A DNA stretch of 64,000 nt from Candidatus Spechtbacterales bacterium (GCA_040879145.1 JBBDKX010000021.1:29256-93255), one strand, 5' to 3'. Shown: positions 2,360 to 46,714, counted from the first letter of the stretch. The notes: generated by a model not told the origin, from the sequence alone. Translations and numbers: made by a program.

Positions 2360-3400
2360 TTATCTTAGCGCAAGTCCTATTGCAACAGCATATTCGGGAG
2401 AATTAACACCCAAAGTGTGCTCCAATTCAGGAGGAATAATTATTTTTTTAAAAGGGTCGCCAACCTCTACATCAACACCTAAAGAACTCTTAAGATATTC
2501 AGTTAATCCGGGCATTCTCGCCTCTCCTCCGGTTAGTATTACGCGAACAACCTTTCTTCCGCCTTCTCTCACATAATCCTCAAACATCTGTTCTACCTCA
2601 AGTATTATCTTATCCATTGAGGGTTTTAACAGTTCGGATACTTCTCCGGCAGACTCCTGCACACCGTTTCTGCGCTTAAGCTCTTCTGCCCGAATGGGAT
2701 CTATTGCCATGCCACGCGCGAGAACCTGTACAAACTTGGAAGAGCCAGTATCTATATTGTGATGCATTACAACCAGCCCTCCATCTACAACACTCACGTC
2801 TGTTGCCCTCGCGCCTATATCTAAAATTGCAACAGGATCAGGGGAAGAGTCTACAAGTGCGCGCGCGCTGCTAAATGTTTCCAACTCTACATTAACAAGC
2901 TCTATTCCAACCATTTCAGCCATCCTGTTATACTTCTCTACTATCTCATTTGGCACCGCCACAGTCAGAACCTTTATTTTTTTGGCGTTTGAAAGATGAT
3001 CTACTTTAATCCAGTCAAATTGCACCTCCCCCATTGGGAGAGGAATATACTTTCTCGCTTCAAATCGGACTGCATTTTCAAGATCTTCATCGGCCATAGC
3101 GGGTAAATCTATTAGTGTAGAAAAGCTGGAAAACACAGGTAGTGATATTGAGGCCTCTTTTCCTCTAAACTTGGCGCTATCAAAAAGCCTATTAATAATA
3201 GTGGCTACCTGCGAATCTAAAATATTATAAGAACCGGCGTGAGCCGTTATATAGTTAGCTTTTGAAAAAAATTGGGCGTAATTAATCAAATAAACATCAT
3301 TGCCTTTTTGCAATAACTCAACCATCTTTAAAGAAGATGTTCCTATGTCAATGCCGAGTTTATATTTATAAGATTTTTTACTAAGCGGATTCCATATCAT
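2360..3400 (-). CDS. pilM: Type IV pilus assembly protein PilM (actin-like ATPase)
   Basis: 346 aa; LGIDIGTSSLKMVEL actin-fold phosphate-1 motif; operon with pilN/pilO/pilB. Confidence 0.8.
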   Translation of the reverse strand: MIWNPLSKKSYKYKLGIDIGTSSLKMVELLQKGNDVYLINYAQFFSKANYITAHAGSYNILDSQVATIINRLFDSAKFRGKEASISLPVFSSFSTLIDLPAMADEDLENAVRFEARKYIPLPMGEVQFDWIKVDHLSNAKKIKVLTVAVPNEIVEKYNRMAEMVGIELVNVELETFSSARALVDSSPDPVAILDIGARATDVSVVDGGLVVMHHNIDTGSSKFVQVLARGMAIDPIRAEELKRRNGVQESAGEVSELLKPSMDKIILEVEQMFEDYVREGGRKVVRVILTGGEARMPGLTEYLKSSLGVDVEVGDPFKKIIIPPELEHTLGVNSPEYAVAIGLALR

Positions 3401-3578: not shown

Positions 3579-6113
3579 ATGAAAAATATACCCACAAACT
3601 TAGAAAAACACCTGACAAAAAGAGCAAAAAATGCCTTGCGAAAATCTTTTAAGTTAGCCGCGCAATATCCCGATAAAACATCAAAAAACAAAGCAACACC
3701 AGCCCATCTTTTGTATGCCCTGGCGAAAGAGGAGGGTTCTATATCAAAAAACATACTTGAAGCTAATGACGTCAAAGCTACACGAATACTGACGGGGTTG
3801 AAAAAAATATCAGCTAAAAGCAGTTCAACAAACACAACGCCTGTAAGCGAGCTATCTCTTGATTATAAAAAGACCTTAAAAAAAGCGGCTAACTACGCTA
3901 TGAACCAAGGGCACTATTTTATAGGCACCGAACACCTGCTATATGGAACCCTTAACAAATCGCAGGGTGTTGAAGGATTTACACAACAAAAAATGAAAAA
4001 AGTAAAAGAGCATCTTGATGATATGATGGCAAGTTATCTTTCTCTTGAAACAGGGCTAAACCCAAACATGCAAAAACTTAGTTCTCTTGTAAGCGAGCAT
4101 GCAGACCATTCTCTTGAAGATGGCGAGTTGGAAGATGTTATTTTTTCAGATGTAAAGACAAAAACATCAAAAACCCCTGTGCTGGAATCTTTTTGTGAAA
4201 ATCTTTCCCAAAAAGCTGCAGATGGGAACTTAGACCCTTTAGTTGGAAGAGAAGCTGAACTAAACCGCCTGGTAAGAATACTTTCCAGAAAAACAAAGAA
4301 TAATCCCTTACTTGTAGGTGACGCGGGAGTTGGAAAAACAGCGCTTGTGCAGGGTCTCGCGCAAAAAATAAGCGAGGGTTATGTTCCGGCAAATCTTATA
4401 AACAAAACTGTGTATTCGTTAAACCTAAGCTCTCTTGTGGCCGGAACTCTTTATCGCGGGGAATTTGAAGAGAGGGTGCGCGACCTTCTTGAAGAAGCGG
4501 AAAAATCAAGTGTAATTCTTTTTATAGATGAGATACACATACTTCCCGGCGCGGGCTCAGCGCAGGGGTCGCTTGACGCGGCCAACATACTCAAACCGGC
4601 TTTGGTCAACGGAGCGTTTCAGTGTATAGGCGCCACAACATATGATGAGTATAAAAAAACCATAGAAAAAGATACAGCCCTGGACAGGCGTTTTCAAAAA
4701 ATATTTATTAAGGAGCAGACTCCTCAGGAGGCGATAAAAACCCTGGTGCACCTCAAGCCCTTCTATGAACAACATCACAACGTTGCTATATCCGACAAAA
4801 TTATTAACATGTGCGTTGATCTGTCTGTAAAATATATCCCCTCAAGATTCCTTCCCGACAAGGCGCTTGATATTCTTGATGAGGCTTCTTCGCTTACACG
4901 AACAGAAAAGATGATAAAAAAAGAGCATAGAGATATAAAGATACTGCAGGCAGAAATAATAGACGTAATTATGGACAAAGAAGAGGCTCTTAGAAAAGAG
5001 CATTATCAAAAGGCCATGCAACTAAAAAACAAACAGGAAGCGCTTGAGCAAAAAATATACAAGATGCACAAAGACAACCACGACCGCAATGCTTCGCCAA
5101 AAGTAACAGAAAAAGCTGTCTACGAAGTAATATCAGAGATAGCGGGGGTTCCTCTTCGTCAACTAACAAAACAGGACTCAGATGCGCTCTCCTCTATTGA
5201 AGCTCAAATTGGAAAACACCTTTTCGGACAGGATGACGCAATCAAAAAAGTTGCAAAAGCAATCCGCAGAAATCGAACAGGGGTTACCCGCGGAAATCGC
5301 CCCATAGCTTCCATGCTGTTCATGGGACCGAGCGGAGTTGGAAAAACAGAACTTGCAAAAATAATTGCCCACTCGTTTTCGGGCACAAACCCTTCCAGCG
5401 AGGGGGCTCCGGGAGCACTTATAAAACTGGATATGTCAGAATATTCAGAAGCGCATACAATATCACGCCTCATAGGCGCGCCTCCCGGATACGTAGGTTA
5501 TGAAGACGCGGGTCTTTTGACAGACAAGGTACGCAAGCATCCCTACTCAGTGGTGCTGTTTGATGAAATAGAAAAAGCACACCCAAAAATATTCAATGTA
5601 CTCTTACAGATACTGGAAGAGGGAACTCTAACTGATTCACAGGGAAAAAGCGCGAGTTTTAAAAATACATTTATAATACTCACATCCAACGTGGGGGCAA
5701 CTCTTTTCGGTAAAAATTCGGGGTTGGGATTTTCAGGAGCAGATTCCACAAATCGTGAAAAGAGCGCAATGGGAGCTCTTAAAGAGTTGATGAAACCGGA
5801 AATAATAAACCGGCTTGACGGCATAGTTGTATTCAATAATTTAGATTCCGCCACACTGGAGAAAATAGCAGAGGTACAAATTCACGAACTCAAAGAAAGA
5901 CTTAGCGACACAATTGAAATTACTTTCTCCAGTGCTGTCGCAAAATGGCTGGCACACAATACAGACGCGCAAGAAAAAGGAGCGCGTGGAATAAGAAAAG
6001 CAGTAGAAACACATTTAGAAGAGCCTATTTCAGACATCCTACTAAAAGAGAAGGTAAAAAACATAAAAATAGAAGTAAGACAAAATAAGCTTGTTGTTAA
6101 AACAAACAATTGA
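3579..6113 (+). CDS. clpC: ATP-dependent Clp protease ATP-binding subunit ClpC/ClpB-like AAA+ chaperone
   Basis: 844 aa; Clp_N repeats, two AAA modules (GDAGVGKTA... DEIH; FMGPSGVGKTELAK... DMSEYSEAHTISRLIGAPPGYVGY... FDEIEKAH). Confidence 0.85.
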   Translation: MKNIPTNLEKHLTKRAKNALRKSFKLAAQYPDKTSKNKATPAHLLYALAKEEGSISKNILEANDVKATRILTGLKKISAKSSSTNTTPVSELSLDYKKTLKKAANYAMNQGHYFIGTEHLLYGTLNKSQGVEGFTQQKMKKVKEHLDDMMASYLSLETGLNPNMQKLSSLVSEHADHSLEDGELEDVIFSDVKTKTSKTPVLESFCENLSQKAADGNLDPLVGREAELNRLVRILSRKTKNNPLLVGDAGVGKTALVQGLAQKISEGYVPANLINKTVYSLNLSSLVAGTLYRGEFEERVRDLLEEAEKSSVILFIDEIHILPGAGSAQGSLDAANILKPALVNGAFQCIGATTYDEYKKTIEKDTALDRRFQKIFIKEQTPQEAIKTLVHLKPFYEQHHNVAISDKIINMCVDLSVKYIPSRFLPDKALDILDEASSLTRTEKMIKKEHRDIKILQAEIIDVIMDKEEALRKEHYQKAMQLKNKQEALEQKIYKMHKDNHDRNASPKVTEKAVYEVISEIAGVPLRQLTKQDSDALSSIEAQIGKHLFGQDDAIKKVAKAIRRNRTGVTRGNRPIASMLFMGPSGVGKTELAKIIAHSFSGTNPSSEGAPGALIKLDMSEYSEAHTISRLIGAPPGYVGYEDAGLLTDKVRKHPYSVVLFDEIEKAHPKIFNVLLQILEEGTLTDSQGKSASFKNTFIILTSNVGATLFGKNSGLGFSGADSTNREKSAMGALKELMKPEIINRLDGIVVFNNLDSATLEKIAEVQIHELKERLSDTIEITFSSAVAKWLAHNTDAQEKGARGIRKAVETHLEEPISDILLKEKVKNIKIEVRQNKLVVKTNN

Positions 6114-6903
6114 GACATTTTTCCCAAGCCAATGTTACCATTGTAAAGCCCCCGGAAACTACCTTTGCGGGGACTGTTTTTGGGGGTTGGCCGTTATGTA
6201 CGAACCGGCATGCCCCCACTGTGAGACACGCCTTCCTTTCGGAGAACTGCCAAAAGAATGCCGGCAGGAAGTAAAGCTGCACCGCGTTTTTACCAGCGGG
6301 CTTTATTCAGACGCAACACTTAATGGTTTGATAAAAGACCTCAAATACAAAGGCGCCTGGCGCCTTGCGGAACCTCTTGCCCGCTTTGCGTATTGGCAAC
6401 TTGACCAAGGTGGCTACGCCGAAGTTATAAAAGAAAAGGTTGATATTATAATTCCCGTACCCCTTCATAAAAATAAATTAAAAAGACGCGGGTTTAACCA
6501 CACTCAAAAGATTGCGGAACATTTATCTGAATTGCTCGATATTCCCTTAGAGATTGACGCTTTAGTTAAGTCAAAAAAAACCGATTCGCAAGTTGAAACC
6601 GGCTCAAGAGAAGAGCGTGAAAAAAACCTTGCCGGCGCGTTCGCTATCACCAATACACAGGTTCAACCTGTGTATAAAACACCCCACACAGGTTCAACCT
6701 GTGTATCTCCTATTTTTAATAAAACCGTGCTTTTAGTTGACGATGTTATTACCACAGGCTCTACACTGCGCGAATGCGCTCTTGCCTTACGCTTTCCATA
6801 TAAATGCGCAAACGCGAAGCATAAAACATGCGAGCTTGGCAGTAGGTGTTATATGAAACAGTACGTGAGGGAGGTATGGGGGCTAACTGTAGCGAAGGAC
6901 TAA
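6091..6903 (+). CDS. comF: ComF family protein (ComFC-like phosphoribosyltransferase domain, N-terminal 4-Cys zinc finger); atypical C-terminus
   Basis: CYHCKAPGNYLCGDC...CPHCETRL zinc finger; PRTase motif VLLVDDVITTGSTL; contains in-frame palindromic repeat insertion. Confidence 0.7.
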   Translation: MLLKQTIETFFPSQCYHCKAPGNYLCGDCFWGLAVMYEPACPHCETRLPFGELPKECRQEVKLHRVFTSGLYSDATLNGLIKDLKYKGAWRLAEPLARFAYWQLDQGGYAEVIKEKVDIIIPVPLHKNKLKRRGFNHTQKIAEHLSELLDIPLEIDALVKSKKTDSQVETGSREEREKNLAGAFAITNTQVQPVYKTPHTGSTCVSPIFNKTVLLVDDVITTGSTLRECALALRFPYKCANAKHKTCELGSRCYMKQYVREVWGLTVAKD

Positions 6904-6953
6904 ATAAAAAGACACTGAATATTCAGCGTCTTTTTATTTAATCCTTACAATAT

Positions 6954-7421
6954 TTATTCTGACTCTTTCATTTCATCAACTCCTCTATTCCTTTTATTAG
7001 CCCTTTCAACCTCCTGCACTTCAGCTGCAAACGGATTCAAGCCTGTTACTTCCTCAGCTGTCGGGCTATCTTCATAATGTGAATAGGCATTAGCGGAGCC
7101 GAATTTATCCTCTGCTGTTTTGCGCGCATCAGAGACCATTTCCGGAAGGATCTTTGCCAGTCCTTCTGCTTGTTCCGGGGTCAAGTCAAAATGTGTTCGC
7201 GTGCCTTCCATAACCTTTCCATCTTCACCGATCACTCCTAAACTCACATCTAAGTGACCGTGCTTGTTGACATCAACATTAACCCTGTAGCCGTCCCTGG
7301 TTATCAACCCTGTCCTTTCGTGGTGAGCGTGAATTTCCGGCTTTATCCATCCGTTTCCAAGTTTTTCTTTAATGCTTTTTATTTTCTTCTCCCCTTGATT
7401 ATCAAATTTTTCTACAGACAT
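6954..7421 (-). CDS. Hypothetical protein
   Basis: 155-aa ORF, no recognisable motif; C9 homopolymer about 40 nt upstream. Confidence 0.4.
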   Translation of the reverse strand: MSVEKFDNQGEKKIKSIKEKLGNGWIKPEIHAHHERTGLITRDGYRVNVDVNKHGHLDVSLGVIGEDGKVMEGTRTHFDLTPEQAEGLAKILPEMVSDARKTAEDKFGSANAYSHYEDSPTAEEVTGLNPFAAEVQEVERANKRNRGVDEMKESE

Positions 7422-7489
7422 ATTTTTATAATTATTAAATTAATTATACTACCCTCATACTACCCCCCCCCTGCTGTTGATGTCAACAT

Positions 7490-7518
7490 AAAAACACGGT
7501 TTTAACCGTGTTTTTATG
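7490..7518 (-). terminator. Rho-independent terminator hairpin (AAAAACACGGTT/AACCGTGTTTTT)
   Basis: Perfect inverted repeat with T-run, directly downstream of the 7549..7872 gene on the minus strand. Confidence 0.55.
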
Positions 7519-7548
7519 TTTTAGTAAATGAGGTGAGATTCAATATTC

Positions 7549-7872
7549 TTATACATTAACCTCAAATCTCCAATCCATTGGAATTAATGTCAAATTAACC
7601 GGATGATTGAACCCGCTTTCTGTTTTCCACTTTGAAATTCCATCTCGAATATCGTTAAATAATCTGTCTCGGTCATCTGTCTTTGACGCACTCATGCGAA
7701 CAAAGACCTCAATCGGGGCAACACCGACCTTAATGCGCGCGCTATTGGCGTATACAAATACATCTTTTATTTGTGTTGCTTCTGAAACTATTTTCTGAAC
7801 CGCATTTGAAACCGCGATGATATCTTTGTCATCAAGCTTTGTGTCGTCATATTCAATGTGAATCATTGGCAT
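7549..7872 (-). CDS. Hypothetical protein; begins Met-Pro (tautomerase-superfamily-like beta-alpha-beta), weak
   Basis: 107 aa MPMIHIEYDD...; Pro1 start and two repeated beta-alpha-beta halves. Confidence 0.4.
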   Translation of the reverse strand: MPMIHIEYDDTKLDDKDIIAVSNAVQKIVSEATQIKDVFVYANSARIKVGVAPIEVFVRMSASKTDDRDRLFNDIRDGISKWKTESGFNHPVNLTLIPMDWRFEVNV

Positions 7873-7943
7873 AATTGTTTTGATTATTTTATTTTATAAT
7901 TAGTCTGAATTAACACCACGCACAGGTTCAACCTGTGTACCTT

Positions 7944-8552
7944 CTATTTTTTATAAAACGTTGCGATAAAATATGGGTGAATTTTTTTAAGGCGAAGTTT
8001 AAATTGGTTCCCCTCCCTGCTTCCAAAACGATTTTCAAACAAAGCTATATATTCTTCTTCGTTAAACCAGCGTTCAATTTCATTTACTCCGTCTGAATCA
8101 AGTTTTTTAAATACCCAATCAACAATTCCACCAAACACTCCATAACGACTTTTAAGATTGAGGAATGCGGGCTCCATCACAACCACTCGTTCTTTTGCAT
8201 TTGAATACACAAGATCAAATAATTCTTTGAGCTTTTTTTCAGGAATATGATGGACAACATCTACAAGTACTACTGTATCGCTTTTTTTATATGCACCTGG
8301 ATCAAAAATATTCCCTTTCTCAACCTGCCTTCCTCTTTTTTGAGCATATATAATAAATTCTTCATTTAAATCAATTCCTGAGTAAACATTGGAGGAATCA
8401 ATATACTTCTCCATCTGTCCGAAACCACACGCTACATCAAAAACACTAACATTCTTGCCCACCTCCTCGCTAAAAATTTTTAAAACAGATTTGCGATGAA
8501 TTATCGGAATTAATATTTTATATATCCAAGGATACTTATATTGTAGCATCAT
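7944..8552 (-). CDS. Class I SAM-dependent methyltransferase
   Basis: VFDVACGFGQ glycine-rich SAM-binding motif I; 202 aa. Confidence 0.7.
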   Translation of the reverse strand: MMLQYKYPWIYKILIPIIHRKSVLKIFSEEVGKNVSVFDVACGFGQMEKYIDSSNVYSGIDLNEEFIIYAQKRGRQVEKGNIFDPGAYKKSDTVVLVDVVHHIPEKKLKELFDLVYSNAKERVVVMEPAFLNLKSRYGVFGGIVDWVFKKLDSDGVNEIERWFNEEEYIALFENRFGSREGNQFKLRLKKIHPYFIATFYKK

Positions 8553-8618
8553 GTTTTATTATTTAAACGCTTAATAATTGCAGCTTCTGATTTGAAAATT
8601 TCTTCATTAAAATTCATA

Positions 8619-9152
8619 TCATTTGAAGAGTTCAAACATCTCAGTATCGGAGTCAATCTTTTTTGCTTTGTTATGAGCATCATCAACAGACAACTTTTTA
8701 GCAAAAAGATGATAGTAAAAATTCAAAACATAAAAAAGCGAAGCGTTGCCCATGGGATAATCTTTTGGCGCAATATAATTTTTTGCACCGGCATTGAGAA
8801 ACGCATCAGCAAAGTCTTTTATTCCTGTTTTGCAACCAGTGCTAACAACAATCTGCCCGTCAAGTTTCAAAAATTCCGAAAGATTTACTCCAGTAAGAAA
8901 CTTATCGTAGGGTTGTTGTTTCGCAATTTCTTCGCCAAGCTCGGGCAATACTATTCCCTCATCAACGCCATGACACATAAGCAGAATGTGTGGTGACAAT
9001 TTTTGCTTGCCATTCAAAATATCGACCAAATCTTGAGATTTGCCGATAAAAAAAGTTCTTGTAACAACTTGCCACCATTCTGCAGAAGCTCTCGCTGCGA
9101 GAGCTTCCAAGTCGTTGTCGATAACAATAATATCCAAAAAGTTTTTGTTCAT
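8619..9152 (-). CDS. Hypothetical protein with caspase/CHAT-like His...Cys dyad (clan CD peptidase-like mini-domain)
   Basis: HILLMCHG ...44 aa... IVVSTGCKTG followed by AFLNAGAKNYIAP, matching the His-Gly / Cys / AGA strand spacing of clan CD peptidases. Confidence 0.4.
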   Translation of the reverse strand: MNKNFLDIIVIDNDLEALAARASAEWWQVVTRTFFIGKSQDLVDILNGKQKLSPHILLMCHGVDEGIVLPELGEEIAKQQPYDKFLTGVNLSEFLKLDGQIVVSTGCKTGIKDFADAFLNAGAKNYIAPKDYPMGNASLFYVLNFYYHLFAKKLSVDDAHNKAKKIDSDTEMFELFK

Positions 9153-9242
9153 AAGATTAAAAAATTTCTTTTGCCATTACAAAATATGGTTCGAGCCGAT
9201 TTGTTTTCGGGTTCTTTGGCAGAAGATTCTTTATGGAAATTA

Positions 9243-10729: not shown

Positions 10730-11467
10730 TTATTTTATCAAATTCCAATTATCGAGGAAATATCCCATTTCGTGATCTTTATTTCCGAGATACACTTTTT
10801 CGTCTCTAAATTTGATATTCACTCGATAGCGTTTTCCATGCCCGACTTCCAAAATGGCTTTTTCGTGGACTTTCTTTTCAACTTCATGAAATGGCAAAAT
10901 CAAAAAATTGTTTTTCTTCTCGCCGTGCAAAACAAAAATATAGTAAATATTTCCGTTGCTGTGGCGTTCAAAAGACACTTTGCGAATATCAAAAACATAA
11001 GTATCAAAACTATTCAAATTTGAGGTTTTAACCTGTATGCCAAACAATTGATTTTCTTTGACCGCCACAATATCCATTCCCACATCTACGCTCATTATAC
11101 TGGCGTTGAAACCACGAAAAAGCAACTCGCTACAAACTAAATACTCGCCAGCTTTTCCGGTAAATCCACCAGCAATAACAATTTTTTCTTCTTCCTCTTT
11201 TTCCGCTTCAATAATCTTTGGCGTTTCTTTGATTTCTTTTTTGTTTGGATTGAGCGCAAAAGTTCCGGGTGCGGTTTTGATAAAATCCGAGCCTTCAACT
11301 TTGGTTTTAATATCTACCGTGATTTGCGCGTTCATTGATGCTTCTGGTGTTGCGCCTTCTGTTTCCAAAATACCAGACTCCAAAGCCAACCGAGTGATTT
11401 CGGTATAATGCAAGGGCGTTTTTGCCTTTTTCAATATTTCAATTGCCGATTGTTTGAATGTGTTCAT
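10730..11467 (-). CDS. HARE-HTH (Mrr_N-like winged helix) + restriction-endonuclease-fold protein; candidate Mrr-like nuclease
   Basis: N-term SAIEILKKAKTPLHYTEITRLALESG...GSDFIKTAPGTFAL (HARE-HTH); middle GEYLVCSELLFRG...DVGMDIVAVKE...IQVKT resembles a PD-(D/E)xK core; translationally coupled to upstream gene. Confidence 0.5.
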   Translation of the reverse strand: MNTFKQSAIEILKKAKTPLHYTEITRLALESGILETEGATPEASMNAQITVDIKTKVEGSDFIKTAPGTFALNPNKKEIKETPKIIEAEKEEEEKIVIAGGFTGKAGEYLVCSELLFRGFNASIMSVDVGMDIVAVKENQLFGIQVKTSNLNSFDTYVFDIRKVSFERHSNGNIYYIFVLHGEKKNNFLILPFHEVEKKVHEKAILEVGHGKRYRVNIKFRDEKVYLGNKDHEMGYFLDNWNLIK

Positions 11468-21205: not shown

Positions 21206-22819
21206 ATGGACAACATAAATTTACAAACCAAAAAGTTTTTCCTCTATGCCCGTAAATCCACGGACGAACCCGAAAGGCAGGTTTTGAGTATTGAAGCGCA
21301 AATTTTCGAGCTGAAAGAATACGCCCGAAAAGAAAATTTGCAGATCGTCCGTGAATTTGTGGAAAGCAAAACCGCCAAAGAACCCGGGCGAGAAATTTTT
21401 AATGAAATGGTGGCGGGCATAGAGAAAAACGAAGCCGAGGGAATTTTAGCGTGGCACCCTGACCGTCTTGCTCGCAATTCCATAGACGGCGGACGAATAA
21501 TCTATCTTGTAGATACTGGAAAGATCACCACGCTAAAATTTCCAACTTTTTGGTTTGATTCAACTCCACAGGGAAAATTTATGTTGTCCATTGCTTTTGG
21601 GCAATCAAAATACTATGTGGATAATCTTTCGGAAAATATAAAGAGGGGTATTCGCCAGAAATTGCGAAATGGAATTTGGCCCGCTTGGGCGCCACTTGGC
21701 TATATAAACGATAAAAACGCTCGCTGTATCGCTGTGGACAAAGAAAAGGCGAAGTATATCAAGCGGGCTTTTGAAATGTATTCAACTGGCGAATATCCCC
21801 TCGCTCAAATCCGAAAGATTATCAATTCCTTGGGCTTGGTTGGCAAGAAAGGCAAAATGCTTTCCGTCTCAAATTATCAATATATGCTCAAGAACAAAAT
21901 ATATTTTGGCATGATTGAATATAACGGCGAATTGTATGACGGAAAGCATGAACCGATTATCACAAAGAAACTTTTTGATTCTGTTCAAGAAGTGATGATG
22001 AAAAAATCCAAACCGAAAACGCCAAAATTGAAACCGTATGTGTATAGAGGATTTTTCCGTTGCGGAGAGTGTGGCTGTTTCATAACTACCGAAACGCAGA
22101 AAGGTCATAACTACCTGCGATGCACTAAACGGAAAAATCCTTGCACGCAAAAATATGTTCGCGAGGAAATCATCACTTCTCAAATAAAAGAGGAAATCAA
22201 AAAAGTTTCTTTGTCTTCCGCTTGGGCAAACGCTTCAATCAATTATTTTGAAAATGAAAAATTGAAAACCGCCCAAGCGGAAAGCTCTTTTGCCCAAAAG
22301 TCGCGAGATGAGCTTGTGGAAACAGAAACAAAACTTGATCGTTTGCTTGATTTACATTTGGAAGGCAGTTTGTCGCAAACGGAATATGCTACTAAAAAGC
22401 ACAAGCTCATTCTCGCAAAAAAGGATTTGGAAGAAAAAATCTCGTCTTTTGGGCGAAAGAGCAATAATCGGTTCGAACTTGCCATAAACTTCATAAAAGA
22501 AGCCAACCAAGCCGAAAAATACGCTCAACAAGAAAATCCCGAAAGGATTCGGGATTTTCTCAAAAAGATTGGTTCGAACTTCCGCATTGCCGACCGCTCT
22601 TTGTTTTTGGATTTCAAAAATGCCTTCAAAATTGCGGAAAAATACCATGCCGAGGCGCTTTGCGCCGAGGCAATTCCTTACGATTTCACAAAAAGTGAAA
22701 ATTGGCGGAGGGGGTGGGACTCGAACCCACATAGGCTTGCGCCTGCCAGTTTTCAAGACTGGTTCCTTAGCCAATTCGGAGCACCCCTCCTTATTTATTT
22801 TTTCTTCTTTTTACCCTGA
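21206..22819 (+). CDS. Large serine recombinase (resolvase N-domain + recombinase domain + zinc ribbon + coiled coil)
   Basis: YARKSTDEPERQ catalytic Ser motif; PLGYIND recombinase domain; CGECGCFITTETQKGHNYLRC zinc ribbon; ORF as predicted runs through IR-B2 and antisense across tRNA-Ser, so true stop is uncertain. Confidence 0.8.
   Translation: MDNINLQTKKFFLYARKSTDEPERQVLSIEAQIFELKEYARKENLQIVREFVESKTAKEPGREIFNEMVAGIEKNEAEGILAWHPDRLARNSIDGGRIIYLVDTGKITTLKFPTFWFDSTPQGKFMLSIAFGQSKYYVDNLSENIKRGIRQKLRNGIWPAWAPLGYINDKNARCIAVDKEKAKYIKRAFEMYSTGEYPLAQIRKIINSLGLVGKKGKMLSVSNYQYMLKNKIYFGMIEYNGELYDGKHEPIITKKLFDSVQEVMMKKSKPKTPKLKPYVYRGFFRCGECGCFITTETQKGHNYLRCTKRKNPCTQKYVREEIITSQIKEEIKKVSLSSAWANASINYFENEKLKTAQAESSFAQKSRDELVETETKLDRLLDLHLEGSLSQTEYATKKHKLILAKKDLEEKISSFGRKSNNRFELAINFIKEANQAEKYAQQENPERIRDFLKKIGSNFRIADRSLFLDFKNAFKIAEKYHAEALCAEAIPYDFTKSENWRRGWDSNPHRLAPASFQDWFLSQFGAPLLIYFFFFLP
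22575..22709. repeat. IR-B2 (partner of 20958-21091), ending in the tRNA-Ser 3' terminus
   Basis: Sequence identity with reverse complement of IR-B1. Confidence 0.85.
22703..22790 (-). tRNA. tRNA-Ser (anticodon UGA), long variable arm, CCA encoded
   Basis: Minus-strand GGAGGGGTGCTCCGAATTGGCTAAGGAACCAGTCTTGAAAACTGGCAGGCGCAAGCCTATGTGGGTTCGAGTCCCACCCCCTCCGCCA; cloverleaf and anticodon loop CTTGAAA. Confidence 0.85.
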
Positions 22820-28560: not shown

Positions 28561-29184
28561 TCAAACGAAACTAGAGAGATAAAGCTCTCCCTTTATCTTG
28601 CCCTCTTCTCTCATTTTTATCAGTTTTCCTCTTAAGTCAGGAGTTAGGGATGAGCAGCCTGTAAAATAAGCATCTCCGTTGAATATAATATTGTCGGGTA
28701 TTTCTTTGAGAGATGTGCAGCCTCCAAAATAAGCCCTTCTTTCAAAGGTTGTGTTGTCGGGTATTTCTTTGAGAGATGTGCAGTGCCCAAAATTAGCATC
28801 TCCTTCAAAGGTTGTGTTGTCGGGTATTTCTTTTAATGTTTCCGCATAGGGACTAAAATCTATATTCTTGGACACGATGATCTTCTCTTTTTCTGTATCT
28901 ATTTTAAAATTGGCTTCAATAAATTCTCCCGCCTCCTCTTCGCTGTTACCCAGGTTTTCCCGCGCCCATTGTATGAGTTTTTCTTTTTCTCTTTCTGGGT
29001 TGAACTCCTGTTCTTGAGCGCCACTATCTGCATTATCATATTTTTCTAATTCATCTAGATCTTGAGGATCATCATCCTGAGGCATCGCACCTCCTAGTTT
29101 TTCTATACTCATAATATTAAAATTTAATTCTACTCTTCCATAATACCCCCCCCGACCTAAAAATGCAAGCGTTTTTATACACAA
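28561..29184 (-). CDS. Leucine-rich-repeat (BspA/TpLRR-like) repeat protein; true start uncertain (29184 or 29112)
   Basis: 21-aa repeats IPDNTTFEGDANFGHCTSLKE x3; 63-bp nucleotide tandem repeats. Confidence 0.5.
   Translation of the reverse strand: MCIKTLAFLGRGGYYGRVELNFNIMSIEKLGGAMPQDDDPQDLDELEKYDNADSGAQEQEFNPEREKEKLIQWARENLGNSEEEAGEFIEANFKIDTEKEKIIVSKNIDFSPYAETLKEIPDNTTFEGDANFGHCTSLKEIPDNTTFERRAYFGGCTSLKEIPDNIIFNGDAYFTGCSSLTPDLRGKLIKMREEGKIKGELYLSSFV
28681..28828. repeat. 63-bp tandem repeats (about 2.3 copies plus a degenerate copy upstream) inside LRR gene
   Basis: TTGTCGGGTATTTCTTTGAGAGATGTGCAG... repeated. Confidence 0.85.
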
Positions 29185-29246: not shown

Positions 29247-29312
29247 TACAACAAGTACAACCTATTAAAAGAGAGACGGCCGTCTCTCTTTTAATAGGTT
29301 GTACTTGTTGTA
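29247..29312. repeat. 66-bp perfect palindrome (33+33, no loop)
   Basis: Checked base-by-base: 29247..29279 is the reverse complement of 29280..29312. Confidence 0.9.
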
Positions 29313-39559: not shown

Positions 39560-39939
39560 AGCCCGTTCTTTGCAATCTAAAATCAATTTGACGGAGCGAA
39601 TTTTCAAATGAATGCTAGGCGTGAGGAGCGAAGCGATGCCAGGAGCATCGTGAGCAACGAACAACAACGCAGGCATTGAAAATTCGCCCGCCGACTCATT
39701 TAATTTACATTGCGGTCCCATCGTCTAGTCTGGCCTAGGACGCCAGGTTTTCATCCTGGTAACACGGGTTCGAATCCCGTTGGGACCGCAATGTACGTTA
39801 GTAAAAGGAAACAAAATAGTACGCCATCTGCTTCGTTACGCTTTCCTAGAAGTAATATAAATTACTCCTTCGTCACCGCGCCTACCATATGGCGCACTCT
39901 TTTGTTTTCAAATTGATTTTAGATTGCAAAGAACGGGCT
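39560..39939. repeat. Segment bounded by perfect 31-bp inverted repeat (39560-39590 / 39909-39939) enclosing an intact tRNA-Glu
   Basis: AGCCCGTTCTTTGCAATCTAAAATCAATTTG and its exact reverse complement. Confidence 0.85.
39714..39788 (+). tRNA. tRNA-Glu (anticodon UUC)
   Basis: GGTCCCATCGTCTAGTCTGGCCTAGGACGCCAGGTTTTCATCCTGGTAACACGGGTTCGAATCCCGTTGGGACCG; close to the E. coli tRNA-Glu pattern. Confidence 0.85.
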
Positions 39940-39942
39940 GAA

Positions 39943-39991
39943 GCCTAGGACGCCAGGTTTTCATCCTGGTAACACGGGTTCGAATCCCGTT
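39943..39991 (+). other. 3' two-thirds of a second tRNA-Glu copy (D-loop to CCA), lacking its own 5' end
   Basis: GCCTAGGACGCCAGGTTTTCATCCTGGTAACACGGGTTCGAATCCCGTTGGGACCGCCA identical to intact copy; CCA encoded here but not in intact copy. Confidence 0.6.
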
Positions 39992-40058
39992 GGGACCGCC
40001 ATATAAATTACCAAAAGGAAAACGGCTTATTAAGCCGTTTTCCTTTATAGATCAATTA

Positions 40059-41249
40059 ATGAGAGTGCTTGGCATAGAAACATCATGCGATGACACAGCC
40101 ATCGCCCTGCTTGAAGCCAAAAGAGAACTCCCCTCTCCCGAACTTAAGTTGCTTAAAAATATAGTATCTTCACAGGTAAAAATGCACTCCGAATACGGAG
40201 GAGTTGTGCCGGGATTAGCAAAGAGAGAACATCAAAAGAATTTAATTCCGGTGTTGTTTGAAGCACTGGAATTAAATTCCATGAAACATGAAACAGGAAA
40301 CATGAAACAGGCCCAAAAAATTAAAAACATTGAAAAAATATTAGAAAGATATGATGACCTGCTTGAGGAATTTAAAGAAAAGGTAGTACCGATTGAAAAG
40401 CCTGCTGTAGATTTAATCGCTGTAACTCATGGTCCAGGGCTTGAGCCCGCACTGTGGGTGGGAGTTAATTTTGCCCGCGCTTTGTCCGCTTTATGGGATA
40501 TTCCCATAATTGGAGTGGACCATATGGAAGGCCACATTGCAGTAAATTTACTGCAATGTGGAAATTCAAAATTCAAAATTCAAAATTCGAAATTAGCGAG
40601 AGAAATTGAATTTCCTGCAATTTCTCTCGCTGTATCGGGTGGGCATACCCAGCTTATACTTATTAAAAACTGGATGGATTATGAAATTTTAGGCGAAACT
40701 CTTGACGATGCGGCGGGTGAAGCATTTGATAAAGTAGCCCGCTTAATTGGGCTTGGATTTCCCGGAGGGCCTGAAATTGAAAAAATCGCAAAAAAGGGAG
40801 ACCCTAAGGCCTTTGATTTTCCCCGCCCCATAATGAACAGGCCGGATTATAACTTCAGTTTTTCAGGCTTAAAAACTGCAGTTATGTATAAAGTCAAAGA
40901 AATGACAGAAAAAGAAATAAAAAGCAGGCAAGCCGATATTGCCGCTTCTTTCCAGCAGGCGGCAATTGATACACTTGTTAAAAAATCTATAAAAGCGGCA
41001 AAAGCGCATAATATAAAAACATTTATGCTTGCGGGAGGAGTTGCGGCAAATACAGCGTTGCGCGAACAAATGAAAGAAGCTCTAAAAAAAGAGCTTCCCG
41101 AAGCTCAGTTTATGGTTCCCGAAATAAAACTGGCAACAGACAACGGTGCCATGATAGCGGTTGCCGGTTACATGCGCTATAAAGCGGGACAAAAAAGCAA
41201 CTGGCACACACTTAAAGCAGACAGTTCAAAGTTGATTACAGAGGAATAA
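40059..41249 (+). CDS. tsaD: tRNA N6-adenosine threonylcarbamoyltransferase TsaD (Kae1/Gcp)
   Basis: MRVLGIETSCDDTAIAL...; HMEGH; SGGHTQL; in-frame (AAAATTC)x4 SSR insertion. Confidence 0.85.
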   Translation: MRVLGIETSCDDTAIALLEAKRELPSPELKLLKNIVSSQVKMHSEYGGVVPGLAKREHQKNLIPVLFEALELNSMKHETGNMKQAQKIKNIEKILERYDDLLEEFKEKVVPIEKPAVDLIAVTHGPGLEPALWVGVNFARALSALWDIPIIGVDHMEGHIAVNLLQCGNSKFKIQNSKLAREIEFPAISLAVSGGHTQLILIKNWMDYEILGETLDDAAGEAFDKVARLIGLGFPGGPEIEKIAKKGDPKAFDFPRPIMNRPDYNFSFSGLKTAVMYKVKEMTEKEIKSRQADIAASFQQAAIDTLVKKSIKAAKAHNIKTFMLAGGVAANTALREQMKEALKKELPEAQFMVPEIKLATDNGAMIAVAGYMRYKAGQKSNWHTLKADSSKLITEE

Positions 41250-41257
41250 TTAACTCA

Positions 41258-41335
41258 ATACTATGAGTTAATTATAATAATTAACTCATGCTCATGAGTT
41301 AATTATAATAATCGACTCACAGGCATGAGTCGATT
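41258..41335. terminator. Three consecutive hairpins sharing stem TAACTCA/TGAGTTA (bidirectional terminator cluster)
   Basis: TTAACTCAATACTATGAGTTAA; TTAACTCATGCTCATGAGTTAA; TCGACTCACAGGCATGAGTCGA between convergent genes. Confidence 0.5.
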
Positions 41336-42341
41336 ATTGTTTAACAAGATTTTCAAATATTTTTTCCAACTTGTCTAAATCTTCCTGTAAATCTCCCAGC
41401 TCCGCGTCTTCACTATCAAGCGCTTCAATTATACTGTAAGCGCTTTTTATATTATCCAAAAATTCTTTGTCAGCATTTTCGCTTTGCTCCCCTATTTGCA
41501 AATAAACTTCAAGTTGTTTTTTTATCTGTTTTATAAAAAGCCACCGCGCGGGATGTTTTGTAGCCTCGCTTTTTAATTCCTGCAATTTTTCTATATTTTT
41601 TTCCAGCATTTCATCCTCTACAGAAGATAAAACCTCACCGGCTCTTTTTCTTTGATATAAAGCGCCGGCTATATTTTCAGCTCTCATTATTTCAGCTGTA
41701 GTTTTAAACATATCGCTCGCATTAGGGCCACTCAAAGATACCGCAACAGGTGGAAGATTGGATAGCCCCCCTTTGTACCTGTTTCCGTCTTTATCTTTTA
41801 TGGCAGATTGAAAATAGTCTACCCGTGCAAAGGTGTCGGCATACGGCTTGCCCGTAGCTGTATTTGTCTCGCCCCTCACAGCTTTTGCAAATCTTTCGGC
41901 TTTTTTAGATAGACTGGCAAGACTTTTTCCACTATAAGCATCTATGGCAAGGCCTAATCTTTTTACCTCTTTATCTTCTAAGTCTCCGCCTATGGCGGAA
42001 AACTCTACCACCATGTCTATTCCATGGGCTATGTCGTCATATTCTGAAGTATTTACAGCATGTCCGCCCTCTCCAAGCCAGTGCATGTTTTCAATATAAT
42101 ACGCGGCTAAAATTTCAAGCGCCTTTGCTTTTTTTTCAATAATGTCATTATACTCTTCCATCTTAGCGCGTACTTTTTGAACATAACCTGTATCACGCTT
42201 TATTTTCTCCTCATCGTAAACATCTAAAAAATCTTCGGGGTTTGGCCGTTTTATCATATCTCCACGCGCAATAATAATATCCAGATATTTTTCAATATCC
42301 AAATCTTCACGTTTTTCTTGTTGTGGGAAGGTTTCGGGCAT
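41334..42341 (-). CDS. Hypothetical protein (last gene of 4-gene operon)
   Basis: 335 aa, no recognisable motif. Confidence 0.4.
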   Translation of the reverse strand: MPETFPQQEKREDLDIEKYLDIIIARGDMIKRPNPEDFLDVYDEEKIKRDTGYVQKVRAKMEEYNDIIEKKAKALEILAAYYIENMHWLGEGGHAVNTSEYDDIAHGIDMVVEFSAIGGDLEDKEVKRLGLAIDAYSGKSLASLSKKAERFAKAVRGETNTATGKPYADTFARVDYFQSAIKDKDGNRYKGGLSNLPPVAVSLSGPNASDMFKTTAEIMRAENIAGALYQRKRAGEVLSSVEDEMLEKNIEKLQELKSEATKHPARWLFIKQIKKQLEVYLQIGEQSENADKEFLDNIKSAYSIIEALDSEDAELGDLQEDLDKLEKIFENLVKQ

Positions 42342-46582: not shown

Positions 46583-46714
46583 ACAAGCAAATTAACGATA
46601 TATAAATTTAGACCGTTGCAAGCGCCTACCTTATAACCCAAATTTGTTATTAATGAATTCTAAGATAGAAAAAGTGGGGTCTAAATTTATATATCGTTAA
46701 TTTGCTTTTACATA

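Follow-up and report, generated by a model that had tools for sequence, protein, structure and literature searches.

The comF gene of a Candidatus Spechtbacterales bacterium carries two copies of a short palindrome within its reading frame, and a third copy is found 1.2 kb away between two other genes. Here, we describe these copies in a stretch of 64,000 nucleotides (GCA_040879145.1 JBBDKX010000021.1:29256-93255; called the window in the following, with positions counted from its first letter). Our work suggests that the palindrome is a repetitive extragenic palindromic (REP)-type element of a Patescibacteria-wide family, that its partner is a Y1 (HUH) tyrosine transposase resembling the REP-associated tyrosine transposases (RAYTs), and that an in-frame dimer of the element is present in comF. 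We regard this explanation as probable: A Y1 gene bracketed by the palindrome, solitary hairpins located 3' of genes, and hairpins that are specific for individual lineages together point to the arrangement known as a REP-RAYT system or REPtron.

Three copies of a 21-nt palindrome

The 17-mer CACAGGTTCAACCTGTG has three exact matches in the window (6656-6672, 6687-6703 and 7921-7937). No match was expected and none was obtained in 100 dinucleotide shuffles, and a scan of the 64 kb that allowed up to two mismatches revealed nothing beyond the three copies. A first reading of this DNA, made from the sequence only (the sequence-only reading), had placed the motif at 6657, 6687 and 7921; the last two positions are correct, whereas the first is 6656 in the exact search. 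The full palindrome comprises 21 nt and has the general form TACACAGGTT-N-AACCTGTGTA. The copies are arranged as follows:

6654-6674, + strand: candidate REP copy 1, perfect 21-nt palindrome TACACAGGTTCAACCTGTGTA, loop base C, in comF, read as (N)TQVQPVY
6675-6684, + strand: spacer TAAAACACCC between the comF copies, 10 nt (10-11 nt by alignment)
6685-6705, + strand: candidate REP copy 2, CACACAGGTTCAACCTGTGTA, 1 mismatch, in comF, read one frame over as (H)TGSTCV
7919-7939, + strand: candidate REP copy 3, CGCACAGGTTCAACCTGTGTA, 2 mismatches, between two - strand genes

The deviations of copies 2 and 3 from TACACAGGTTCAACCTGTGTA are confined to the outermost one or two bases, and the three palindromes alone account for the half-site counts in the window. 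The comF pair is oriented head-to-tail, and the AACACC of the spacer resembles the left flank of copy 3. All three copies are also present in the Logan assembly of run SRR27977663 (L072), which shows 100% identity to positions 6408-9206. Since this assembly is independent and identical, the three-copy arrangement is not an artefact of the assembly of this metagenome-assembled genome (MAG).

The palindrome has a stem of 9-10 bp. As RNA, copy 1 is predicted to fold with -13.2 kcal/mol, the window copies range from -9 to -13 kcal/mol, and the palindrome flanked by A5 and T5 reaches -15.8 kcal/mol. Moreover, copies 1 and 2 can pair as one long composite hairpin (-28.5 kcal/mol, z = -8.0). The window copies have no adjacent T-run (it starts about 9 nt past the stem), and they are called only marginally as terminators. 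A comparison with Rfam, for the region and for the whole window, gave nothing near threshold.

Copy 3 is located directly downstream of a methyltransferase gene:

7944-8552, - strand: class I S-adenosylmethionine-dependent methyltransferase gene (Pfam Methyltransf_11), 3' end abutting copy 3

The copy is enclosed by the stop codon of this gene (7944-7946, - strand) and by the next - strand gene, which starts at 7872. In the direction of the mRNA, about 6 nt separate the methyltransferase stop codon from the hairpin, all within an apparent operon; an effect on the stability of the mRNA or on the termination of translation would be more likely there than a role as terminator. Copy 3 is related to the comF pair either by local copying or by a common source. 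In the contig of the closest relative, synteny is lost after comF, and an empty site for copy 3 was therefore not seen there. The region 7549-7872 encodes a 107-aa protein (MPMIHIEY…) that, judged from its sequence, may belong to the tautomerase superfamily, with a Pro following the initiator Met; it has no Pfam match.

The similarity between copies 2 and 3 extends over 53 nt (6678-6730 and 7912-7964, 87% identity), and this stretch contains the following units:

6678-6725, + strand: longer unit at copy 2, AACACCnnn + palindrome + yCTyCTATTTTTwATAAAAC; its end, AAT AAA AC(C), is native comF sequence (N-K-T)
7912-7959, + strand: longer unit at copy 3, with 87% identity to 6678-6725 and a right end that overlaps with the final codons and the stop codon of the methyltransferase gene

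The similarity of these two copies had led to the proposal of a unit of about 40 bp. The similarity is real, but this is not the unit of the family: the core has 21 nt, and the ATAAAAC end is host coding sequence. The head (AACACCnnn) and the tail of the longer unit are absent elsewhere in the window. We discarded the idea of a dispersed 40-nt element since the pattern AACCTGTGTAYCTYCTATTTTT was unmatched in metagenome contigs and head and tail occur at copies 2 and 3 only. The heptamer ATAAAAC directly follows copy 1 (6674-6680), and it follows copies 2 and 3 at a distance of 13 nt. In the methyltransferase gene, its reverse complement GTTTTAT encodes the F and Y codons of the C-terminal …ATFYKK*; a donation of this C-terminus by copy 3 can be ruled out, because …ATFYKK* aligns with the native C-termini of homologues (alignment A2). 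In the unrelated contig L047, TAAAACAC follows a copy of the palindrome. The recurrence of ATAAAAC at the three copies may thus reflect a tail of the element, a preferred target as in IS200/IS605 insertion sequences, or microhomology used in local copying.

An in-frame dimer in an intact comF gene

The comF gene and its two extra segments have the following positions:

6091-6903, + strand: comF, ComFC-type phosphoribosyltransferase with an N-terminal double zinc ribbon, 270 aa from TTG 6091, intact
6655-6705, + strand: DNA in excess of the ComF orthologues, 51 nt, 17 aa TQVQPVYKTPHTGSTCV; the ends are ambiguous by a few bases
6793-6864, + strand: second in-frame extra segment of comF, FPYKCANAKHKTCELGSRCYMKQY, +63 nt (21 aa) relative to the closest orthologue, between ALR and REVWGL

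The product matches the Pfam families Pribosyltran and DZR_2 and has 4778 homologues. The public annotation (P0001) gives comF as a protein of 235 aa from ATG 6196 that loses the first CxxC pair of the zinc ribbon. This annotated start is probably too far downstream, since the open reading frame from TTG 6091 aligns with the N-termini of the orthologues and overlaps the clpC stop codon.

In an alignment with 22 ComF orthologues, the closest ones included (alignment A1), the window protein alone has two extra segments. The first comprises about 17 aa between GAFAITN and KTVLLVDDVITTGST and immediately precedes the phosphoribosyl pyrophosphate (PRPP) motif, in agreement with the earlier observation that the insertion adjoins the phosphoribosyltransferase motif. 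The estimate of about 24 added amino acids was too high: codon, tblastx and protein alignments all give a net gain of 51 nt or 17 aa. A codon alignment with L029, L030 and L031 resolves the surplus 51 nt into palindrome, a spacer of 10-11 nt, and palindrome, and AAT AAA ACC GTG CTT (N-K-T-V-L) is native comF since AAT AAA ACC is present in L031. Comparison by tblastx with the closest contig (L029) revealed the same two gaps of +51 and +63 nt, with 28 nt in L029 corresponding to 79 nt in the window.

As the distance between the two comF copies is 31 nt, each is translated in a frame of its own (TQVQPVY and TGSTCV). With C as the loop base, all three frames of the 21-mer are free of stop codons, and with G it contains TGA in one frame; both comF copies have C, and copy 2 is read in the very frame in which G would be lethal.

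A segment shared with orthologues as conserved protein sequence would have spoken against an insertion; none of the 22 orthologues has it. Every invariant ComF column is kept in the window protein, which is in line with the idea that the in-frame insertion is tolerated. An AlphaFold2 model of ComF, for which the alignment served as input, has a mean predicted local distance difference test score (pLDDT) of 87.3, and only low-confidence coil is predicted for residues 189-209 and 235-258. In this confident model, both inserts thus appear as loops between well-defined core elements, and the 17-aa insert is predicted to sit in the loop that connects a core strand with the PRPP-binding strand; a phmmer search of ComF against the PDB gave nothing useful. 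The sequence-only reading had asked whether comF is intact or decaying: With the invariant columns kept and a confident model, the gene is intact, and a pseudogene label would be inappropriate.

The C-terminal part of ComF had also been regarded as atypical, and this is indeed the case due to the second segment of 63 nt (21 aa). This segment contains no palindrome and no repeat in all sequences compared, and its fold is unremarkable (z = -0.58); it is unrelated to the first segment and outside the REP family. At this site, two other ComF proteins of the Spechtbacteria type (P0005 and P0006) contain YPYKDS as a shorter insert, indicating that this loop takes insertions repeatedly.

A palindrome with arms of 26 nt (AAAAAGACACTGAAT/ATTCAGCGTCTTTTT, 92% complementary) is located at 6895-6946, between comF and a convergent gene for a protein of 155 aa. 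It forms a bidirectional terminator consisting of A-run, hairpin and T-run with another stem, showing that this terminator design is general in this genome.

The palindrome in other Patescibacteria

A scan of one genome per species with the pattern CACAGGTTNAACCTGTGTA yielded 28 loci, and 24 of these originate from MAGs of Patescibacteria. Several copies may be present in a single genome: at least ten on seven contigs (8 loci) in UBA6816, seven in STA_78, and five in H14-bin043_1. Metagenomes contributed 37 further loci with the palindrome. There were no matches in the viral contigs scanned, and the idea of an association with phages was dropped. The full 21-mer, matching on both strands, is present in 28 of the 49 non-redundant contexts, and hardly any degenerate copies exist. 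AAAAA-palindrome-TTTTT is the most frequent form, with both runs in 16 of the 49 contexts and one run in 14. Almost all copies occupy intergenic positions, where they separate convergent genes or follow a stop codon within a few bases, and several directly follow tRNA genes; some were found in divergent promoter regions (L014, L026). The contigs L064 and L037 carry the identical 21-mer, and the housekeeping proteins of the window are only 42-50% identical to the orthologues encoded there. A search of protein databases for peptides encoded by the palindrome gave three candidates that share words with it, none of which scored.

The half-site TTTTTACACAGG forms arrays of three to five repeats with partial hairpins in L028 (2520-2960), L002 and L035 (about 800-880 in both) and L014 (1400-1540). 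These arrays share a GGTT[C/G]AACC centre, adjoin full palindromes and are located upstream of genes; a plain terminator function does not account for them. The arrays in L028 had raised the idea of a DnaA box, an origin of replication (oriC) or an operator, which was set aside because most copies of the palindrome are at 3' ends. In L017, a unit consisting of a TATAAT-like box, a reading frame of four codons (ATG GGT TGG ATA TAA), and an A-run/palindrome/T-run occurs twice (1300-1380 and 1590-1660); this could be a tiny leader with its terminator, or chance.

DNA uptake sequences of Neisseria are a fixed 10-mer that forms terminator-like hairpins after genes when present as inverted pairs and that is also found in genome-maintenance genes. 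Compared with these sequences and with Correia elements, the density of the palindrome is about hundred-fold lower, the half-site is unenriched, and there is no link to uptake specificity. A DNA uptake sequence would require about one word per kb genome-wide; as the half-site is not enriched beyond the three window copies, the palindrome is not such a high-density uptake-type word, and we rejected this possibility.

Copies of the palindrome on either side of a Y1 transposase gene

A gene for a Y1/HUH transposase adjoins the palindrome in three or more independent loci, and in two of them the palindrome is present on both sides. L044 contains a gene for a transposase of 247/248 aa (2554-3297), with copies of the palindrome at 2512-2532 (loop G, about 20 nt upstream of the start) and at 3305-3325 (loop C, after the stop codon); the same gene is found in L011, L023 and L036. 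A homologue in L043 (108-833, 55% identity) is flanked by copies at about 4-24 and 52-72 (loop C) and by one at 837-857 (loop G). For the homologue in L006 (37% identity by tblastn), the palindrome is located about 95 nt downstream. Judged by the loop base, the bracketing copies in L044 and L043 have opposite orientation. The gene occupies the same syntenic position in the genomes of L044 and L023.

The proteins have about 245 aa with a conserved C-terminal extension and are named just "transposase" or "hypothetical" in the public records. They match Pfam Y1_Tnp ("Transposase IS200 like") with 26.3 and 25.1 bits at a cut-off of 23, and their sole NCBIfam match is NF047646, REP_Tyr_transpos (REP-associated tyrosine transposase; E 7.7e-9). 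With a profile built from six sequences, the HUH motif (LMPNHYHL) and the catalytic Tyr (CYIFTNP) of the transposase align with ISDra2 TnpA in the PDB (E 0.004); the alignment with E. coli TnpA-REP 4er8 is weak (E 0.45), and phmmer against the PDB found nothing useful.

The transposase gene itself harbours a copy of the palindrome in frame (L044 2755-2775, also L011 183-203; …EKYTGSTCVSK…). In L023 and L036, this intragenic copy has three extra nucleotides in the loop (…YTGSTTCV…). The L043 homologue does not have the 7-aa YTGSTCV block; the internal copy in L044 is thus a second in-frame insertion.

Other homologues are accompanied by other palindromes. In L005 (31% identity), GTTTACTTCC-G-GGAAGTAAAC (GTTTACTTCCGGGAAGTAAAC) is present on both sides of the gene (about 2325-2350 and 3100-3125), and in L052 the gene is flanked by ACCACGGAAGT…ACTTCCGTGGT and ACATTGGAAGT…ACTTCCAATGT (about 3720-3760 and 4058-4090). 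These two loci suggest that several pairs of REPs and RAYT-like proteins exist in the Patescibacteria.

A hairpin on native-length coding sequence

In L033 (3061-3081) and L067 (6201-6221), the palindrome is part of a conserved glycosyltransferase family 4 (GT4) gene of the candidate phyla radiation and encodes …NTQVQPVY…. Here, an in-frame insertion can be ruled out, as the homologues have the same length at this position (TRVRPVY, AQVTPVY, TQVEPVY). L033 and L067 agree in all 21 nt, and the neighbouring codons differ synonymously. The hairpin is kept across relatives with 70-78% amino acid identity: the loop base is G in L073, the 9-bp stem in L074 is perfect and shows a compensatory change of one pair (CAG to CGG together with CCT to CCC), and the stem in L075 is partly decayed with one wobble and one mismatch. 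The palindrome can therefore be under constraint at the nucleotide level inside a gene.

Alternative explanations

Several observations weigh against a REP-RAYT system and have to be considered together with the alternatives. Transposition of the palindrome is deduced from the comparison of sequences. The GTAG (or CGTC) tag is absent, and TACA…TGTA feet are present on both sides. The window has just three copies, all inside 1.3 kb, and the half-site is otherwise unenriched, so that local copying without a transposase is possible; tblastn with E up to 10 found no homologue of the Y1 transposase in the window. The copy number per genome is low, with about 5-10 exact copies in the loci sampled, and an identical 21-mer at 42-50% protein identity is unusual for REPs, which are normally species- or genus-specific. 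The NCBIfam score of the transposase (35.6 bits) is far under the curated cut-off of 80. The best match in the PDB is an IS200/IS605 transposase, so that sequence alone cannot separate a RAYT from an IS200 enzyme; the transposase may resemble enzymes of the IS200 type more than it does the RAYTs of Proteobacteria. Finally, the compensatory change in the GT4 hairpin indicates selection on the hairpin and not selfish spread alone.

One alternative is that the palindrome is a host cis-element under selection, such as a standard bidirectional terminator, an RNA hairpin at 3' ends or a binding site for a conserved DNA- or RNA-binding protein, that is not mobile now and that reached comF by local copying or conversion. 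The perfect conservation over large protein distances with hardly any degenerate copies fits this idea, as do the A5/T5 flanks, the many positions 3' of genes or tRNAs, the persistence of the GT4 hairpin at native length with its compensatory change (L074) and its G-loop version (L073), and the local clustering of the window copies with the flanks shared by copies 2 and 3. However, the window copies are devoid of A- and T-runs and are poor terminators, other copies lie in divergent promoter regions (L014, L026), and the palindrome is present in some and absent from other homologues both in comF and inside the transposase gene. Moreover, the tight link to Y1 genes and the different palindromes that accompany other homologues are unexpected of a pure terminator or operator. 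We therefore consider a host cis-element possible but unlikely. It would be compatible with an origin as REP, i.e. with a domesticated REP-RAYT system: in this version, which we judge to have a small chance of being correct, the palindrome would be a Patescibacteria-wide bidirectional 3'-end signal with a single-copy Y1 partner that would be kept even in coding sequence through compensatory evolution, as for the GT4 hairpin.

The palindromes might also be the end hairpins of an ordinary insertion sequence of the IS200/IS605 type, with the solitary copies being remnants of ends or derivatives similar to palindrome-associated transposable elements (PATEs). This would be in agreement with the name of the Pfam family, with ISDra2 TnpA as the best solved relative, and with the low score of the RAYT model. 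Yet this model is the only one that NCBIfam returns, and each sampled genome has one copy of the gene but many solitary palindromes; the gene is syntenic in the L044 and L023 genomes. In addition, the same perfect palindrome is found at both ends, whereas IS200/IS605 elements have distinct left and right hairpins, and the proteins have about 245 aa with a C-terminal extension as compared to 130-150 aa for IS200 TnpA. Such an insertion sequence is thus distinctly unlikely.

The sequence-only reading had spoken of a small element resembling a MITE (miniature inverted-repeat transposable element) or a REP. The second part of this proposal is supported by the palindrome family and the bracketing of the Y1 gene, and the first is not. 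A MITE would be moved by a DDE transposase and would have terminal inverted repeats and a target-site duplication, and the symmetry of the palindrome and the direct heptamer ATAAAAC after each copy are reminiscent of these features; but the unit has just 21 nt without a body between the arms, the heptamer is not a flanking duplication of each copy and is host coding sequence in both genes, and it is a Y1 and not a DDE transposase gene that is associated, making this origin very improbable.

A chance palindrome in a ComF loop specific for this lineage, or an assembly artefact, is largely refuted. In its favour, ComF proteins differ in the length of the linker that precedes the PRPP motif, and the GT4 palindrome coincides with native-length coding sequence. 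Against it speak the two perfect comF copies, each in another reading frame, and the additional copy outside comF, with none expected, the same 21-mer throughout the phylum, the closest orthologues, from which exactly 51 nt are missing, and the identical independent assembly.

Other features of the window

A gene for a large serine recombinase (21206-22819; Resolvase, Recombinase and zinc ribbon domains) overlaps with its 3' end the gene for tRNA-Ser(tga) (22703-22790) and is flanked by a perfect inverted repeat of 134 nt (20958-21091/22575-22708). A second inverted repeat of 393 nt with 99% identity has its copies 9.8 kb apart (10337-10729/20572-20964). The serine recombinase region is probably an integrated or invertible element. 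Positions 10730-11467 contain a gene for a HARE-HTH/PD-(D/E)XK protein.

Further repeats are a perfect palindrome of 66 nt (29247-29312), nested AT-rich palindromes (ATAATTAACTCAT…) at 41245-41338, and a perfect inverted repeat of 30 nt with a distance of 63 nt (46585-46707). A perfect 32-nt inverted repeat surrounds the gene for tRNA-Glu (39560-39939), and the 3' part of this tRNA gene is present as a direct duplicate of 79 nt with 92% identity (39733-40021). Three tandem units of 63 nt that are 73-75% identical (28646-28834) probably correspond to a protein repeat of 21 aa.

Relation to known systems and implications

Both this kind of element and the phenomenon of in-frame insertion have precedents; what is new is their occurrence in this phylum, the sequence family, comF as a target, and the deep conservation. 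The arrangement of REPs with RAYT genes in REPtrons has been described (PMC3733652, PMC3337134). REPs are mainly found 3' of open reading frames, and intragenic REPs are known from several species, where more than half of them form dimers or groups that encode 20-30 aa and many are located in genes for DNA replication and repair (Di Nocera et al. 2013, PMC3733652). The dimer in comF fits this pattern of intragenic REP dimers. The GTAG/CGTC tag defines two super-families in that study (PMC3733652), not REPs in general.

The system described here resembles the E. coli REPs and bacterial interspersed mosaic elements (BIMEs) with their RAYT (TnpA-REP, YafM) and the REPIN-RAYT systems of Pseudomonas in the short hairpin-forming palindromes that occur mainly 3' of genes. 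It also shares with REP-RAYT systems the Y1/HUH gene between inverted cognate palindromes, the lineages with palindromes of their own, and the dimers (PMC3733652, PMC3337134). Unlike classical REPs, the palindrome of the Patescibacteria is untagged and has a few to about ten copies per sampled genome instead of hundreds; since it is perfect and symmetric, the loop base alone marks its orientation, which is another difference from classical REPs. The identity of the sequence in deeply diverged genomes and a transposase of about 245 aa with a C-terminal extension and a RAYT score under the cut-off are further differences, and the head-to-tail orientation of the comF pair distinguishes it from the inverted pair of a REPIN.

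As with intragenic REPs and Rickettsia palindromic elements (RPEs), palindromic repeats are inserted in frame, often as dimers of about 20-30 aa and often in genes of DNA metabolism, and the host protein remains intact with the insert in a tolerant region (PMC3733652). RPEs are longer (RPE-1 has about 100-150 bp), carry a CGTC tag and have no known transposase, whereas the unit studied here has 21 nt, occurs in Patescibacteria with comF as a host gene, and has a candidate transposase. With IS200/IS605 elements (IS608, ISDra2) and their PATE derivatives, the system has in common a Y1 HUH transposase with HUH and Tyr motifs that align, and recognition of single-strand hairpins with duplication-free insertion guided by a short specific sequence would fit the recurring ATAAAAC. 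In IS200/IS605, whole units with distinct end hairpins move and are present in multiple copies; here, the hairpin alone is dispersed, and the gene is apparently single and syntenic.

For the REP-RAYT explanation, the E. coli TnpA-REP and the IS608 and ISDra2 TnpA proteins suggest by analogy how the palindrome might spread. The transposase would bind the hairpin on single-stranded DNA, cut and rejoin the DNA beside it, and thus disperse the element singly or as a dimer. The dimer in comF may stem from one event of this kind, or it may have been copied from a donor nearby and joined at the shared ATAAAAC; it would have survived because the frame was kept and a tolerant loop was hit. For the host, ordinary copies probably act as bidirectional terminators or stabilisers of 3' ends. 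The comF pair would mainly add a surface loop of 17 aa, and it could form a strong mRNA structure that dampens expression.

REP-RAYT systems and in-frame palindromic insertions have been documented mainly in Proteobacteria and a few other phyla, and we found no paper that links REP-RAYT systems, RAYTs, REPINs or in-frame palindromic insertions with Patescibacteria. A REP family with a candidate transposase in such tiny reduced genomes would explain odd loops in conserved proteins and flag likely terminators. The combination of a perfect palindrome of 21 nt and an enzyme of 245 aa would be a compact system for hairpin-directed single-strand transposition. If the system is domesticated, the copies in comF and in the transposase gene could act as regulatory hairpins on mRNA or single-stranded DNA, and the element would be tied to the DNA uptake machinery that these bacteria are thought to need. 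An identical repeat in diverged lineages and a compensatory change within a coding region bear on the question whether REPs are parasites or have been domesticated.

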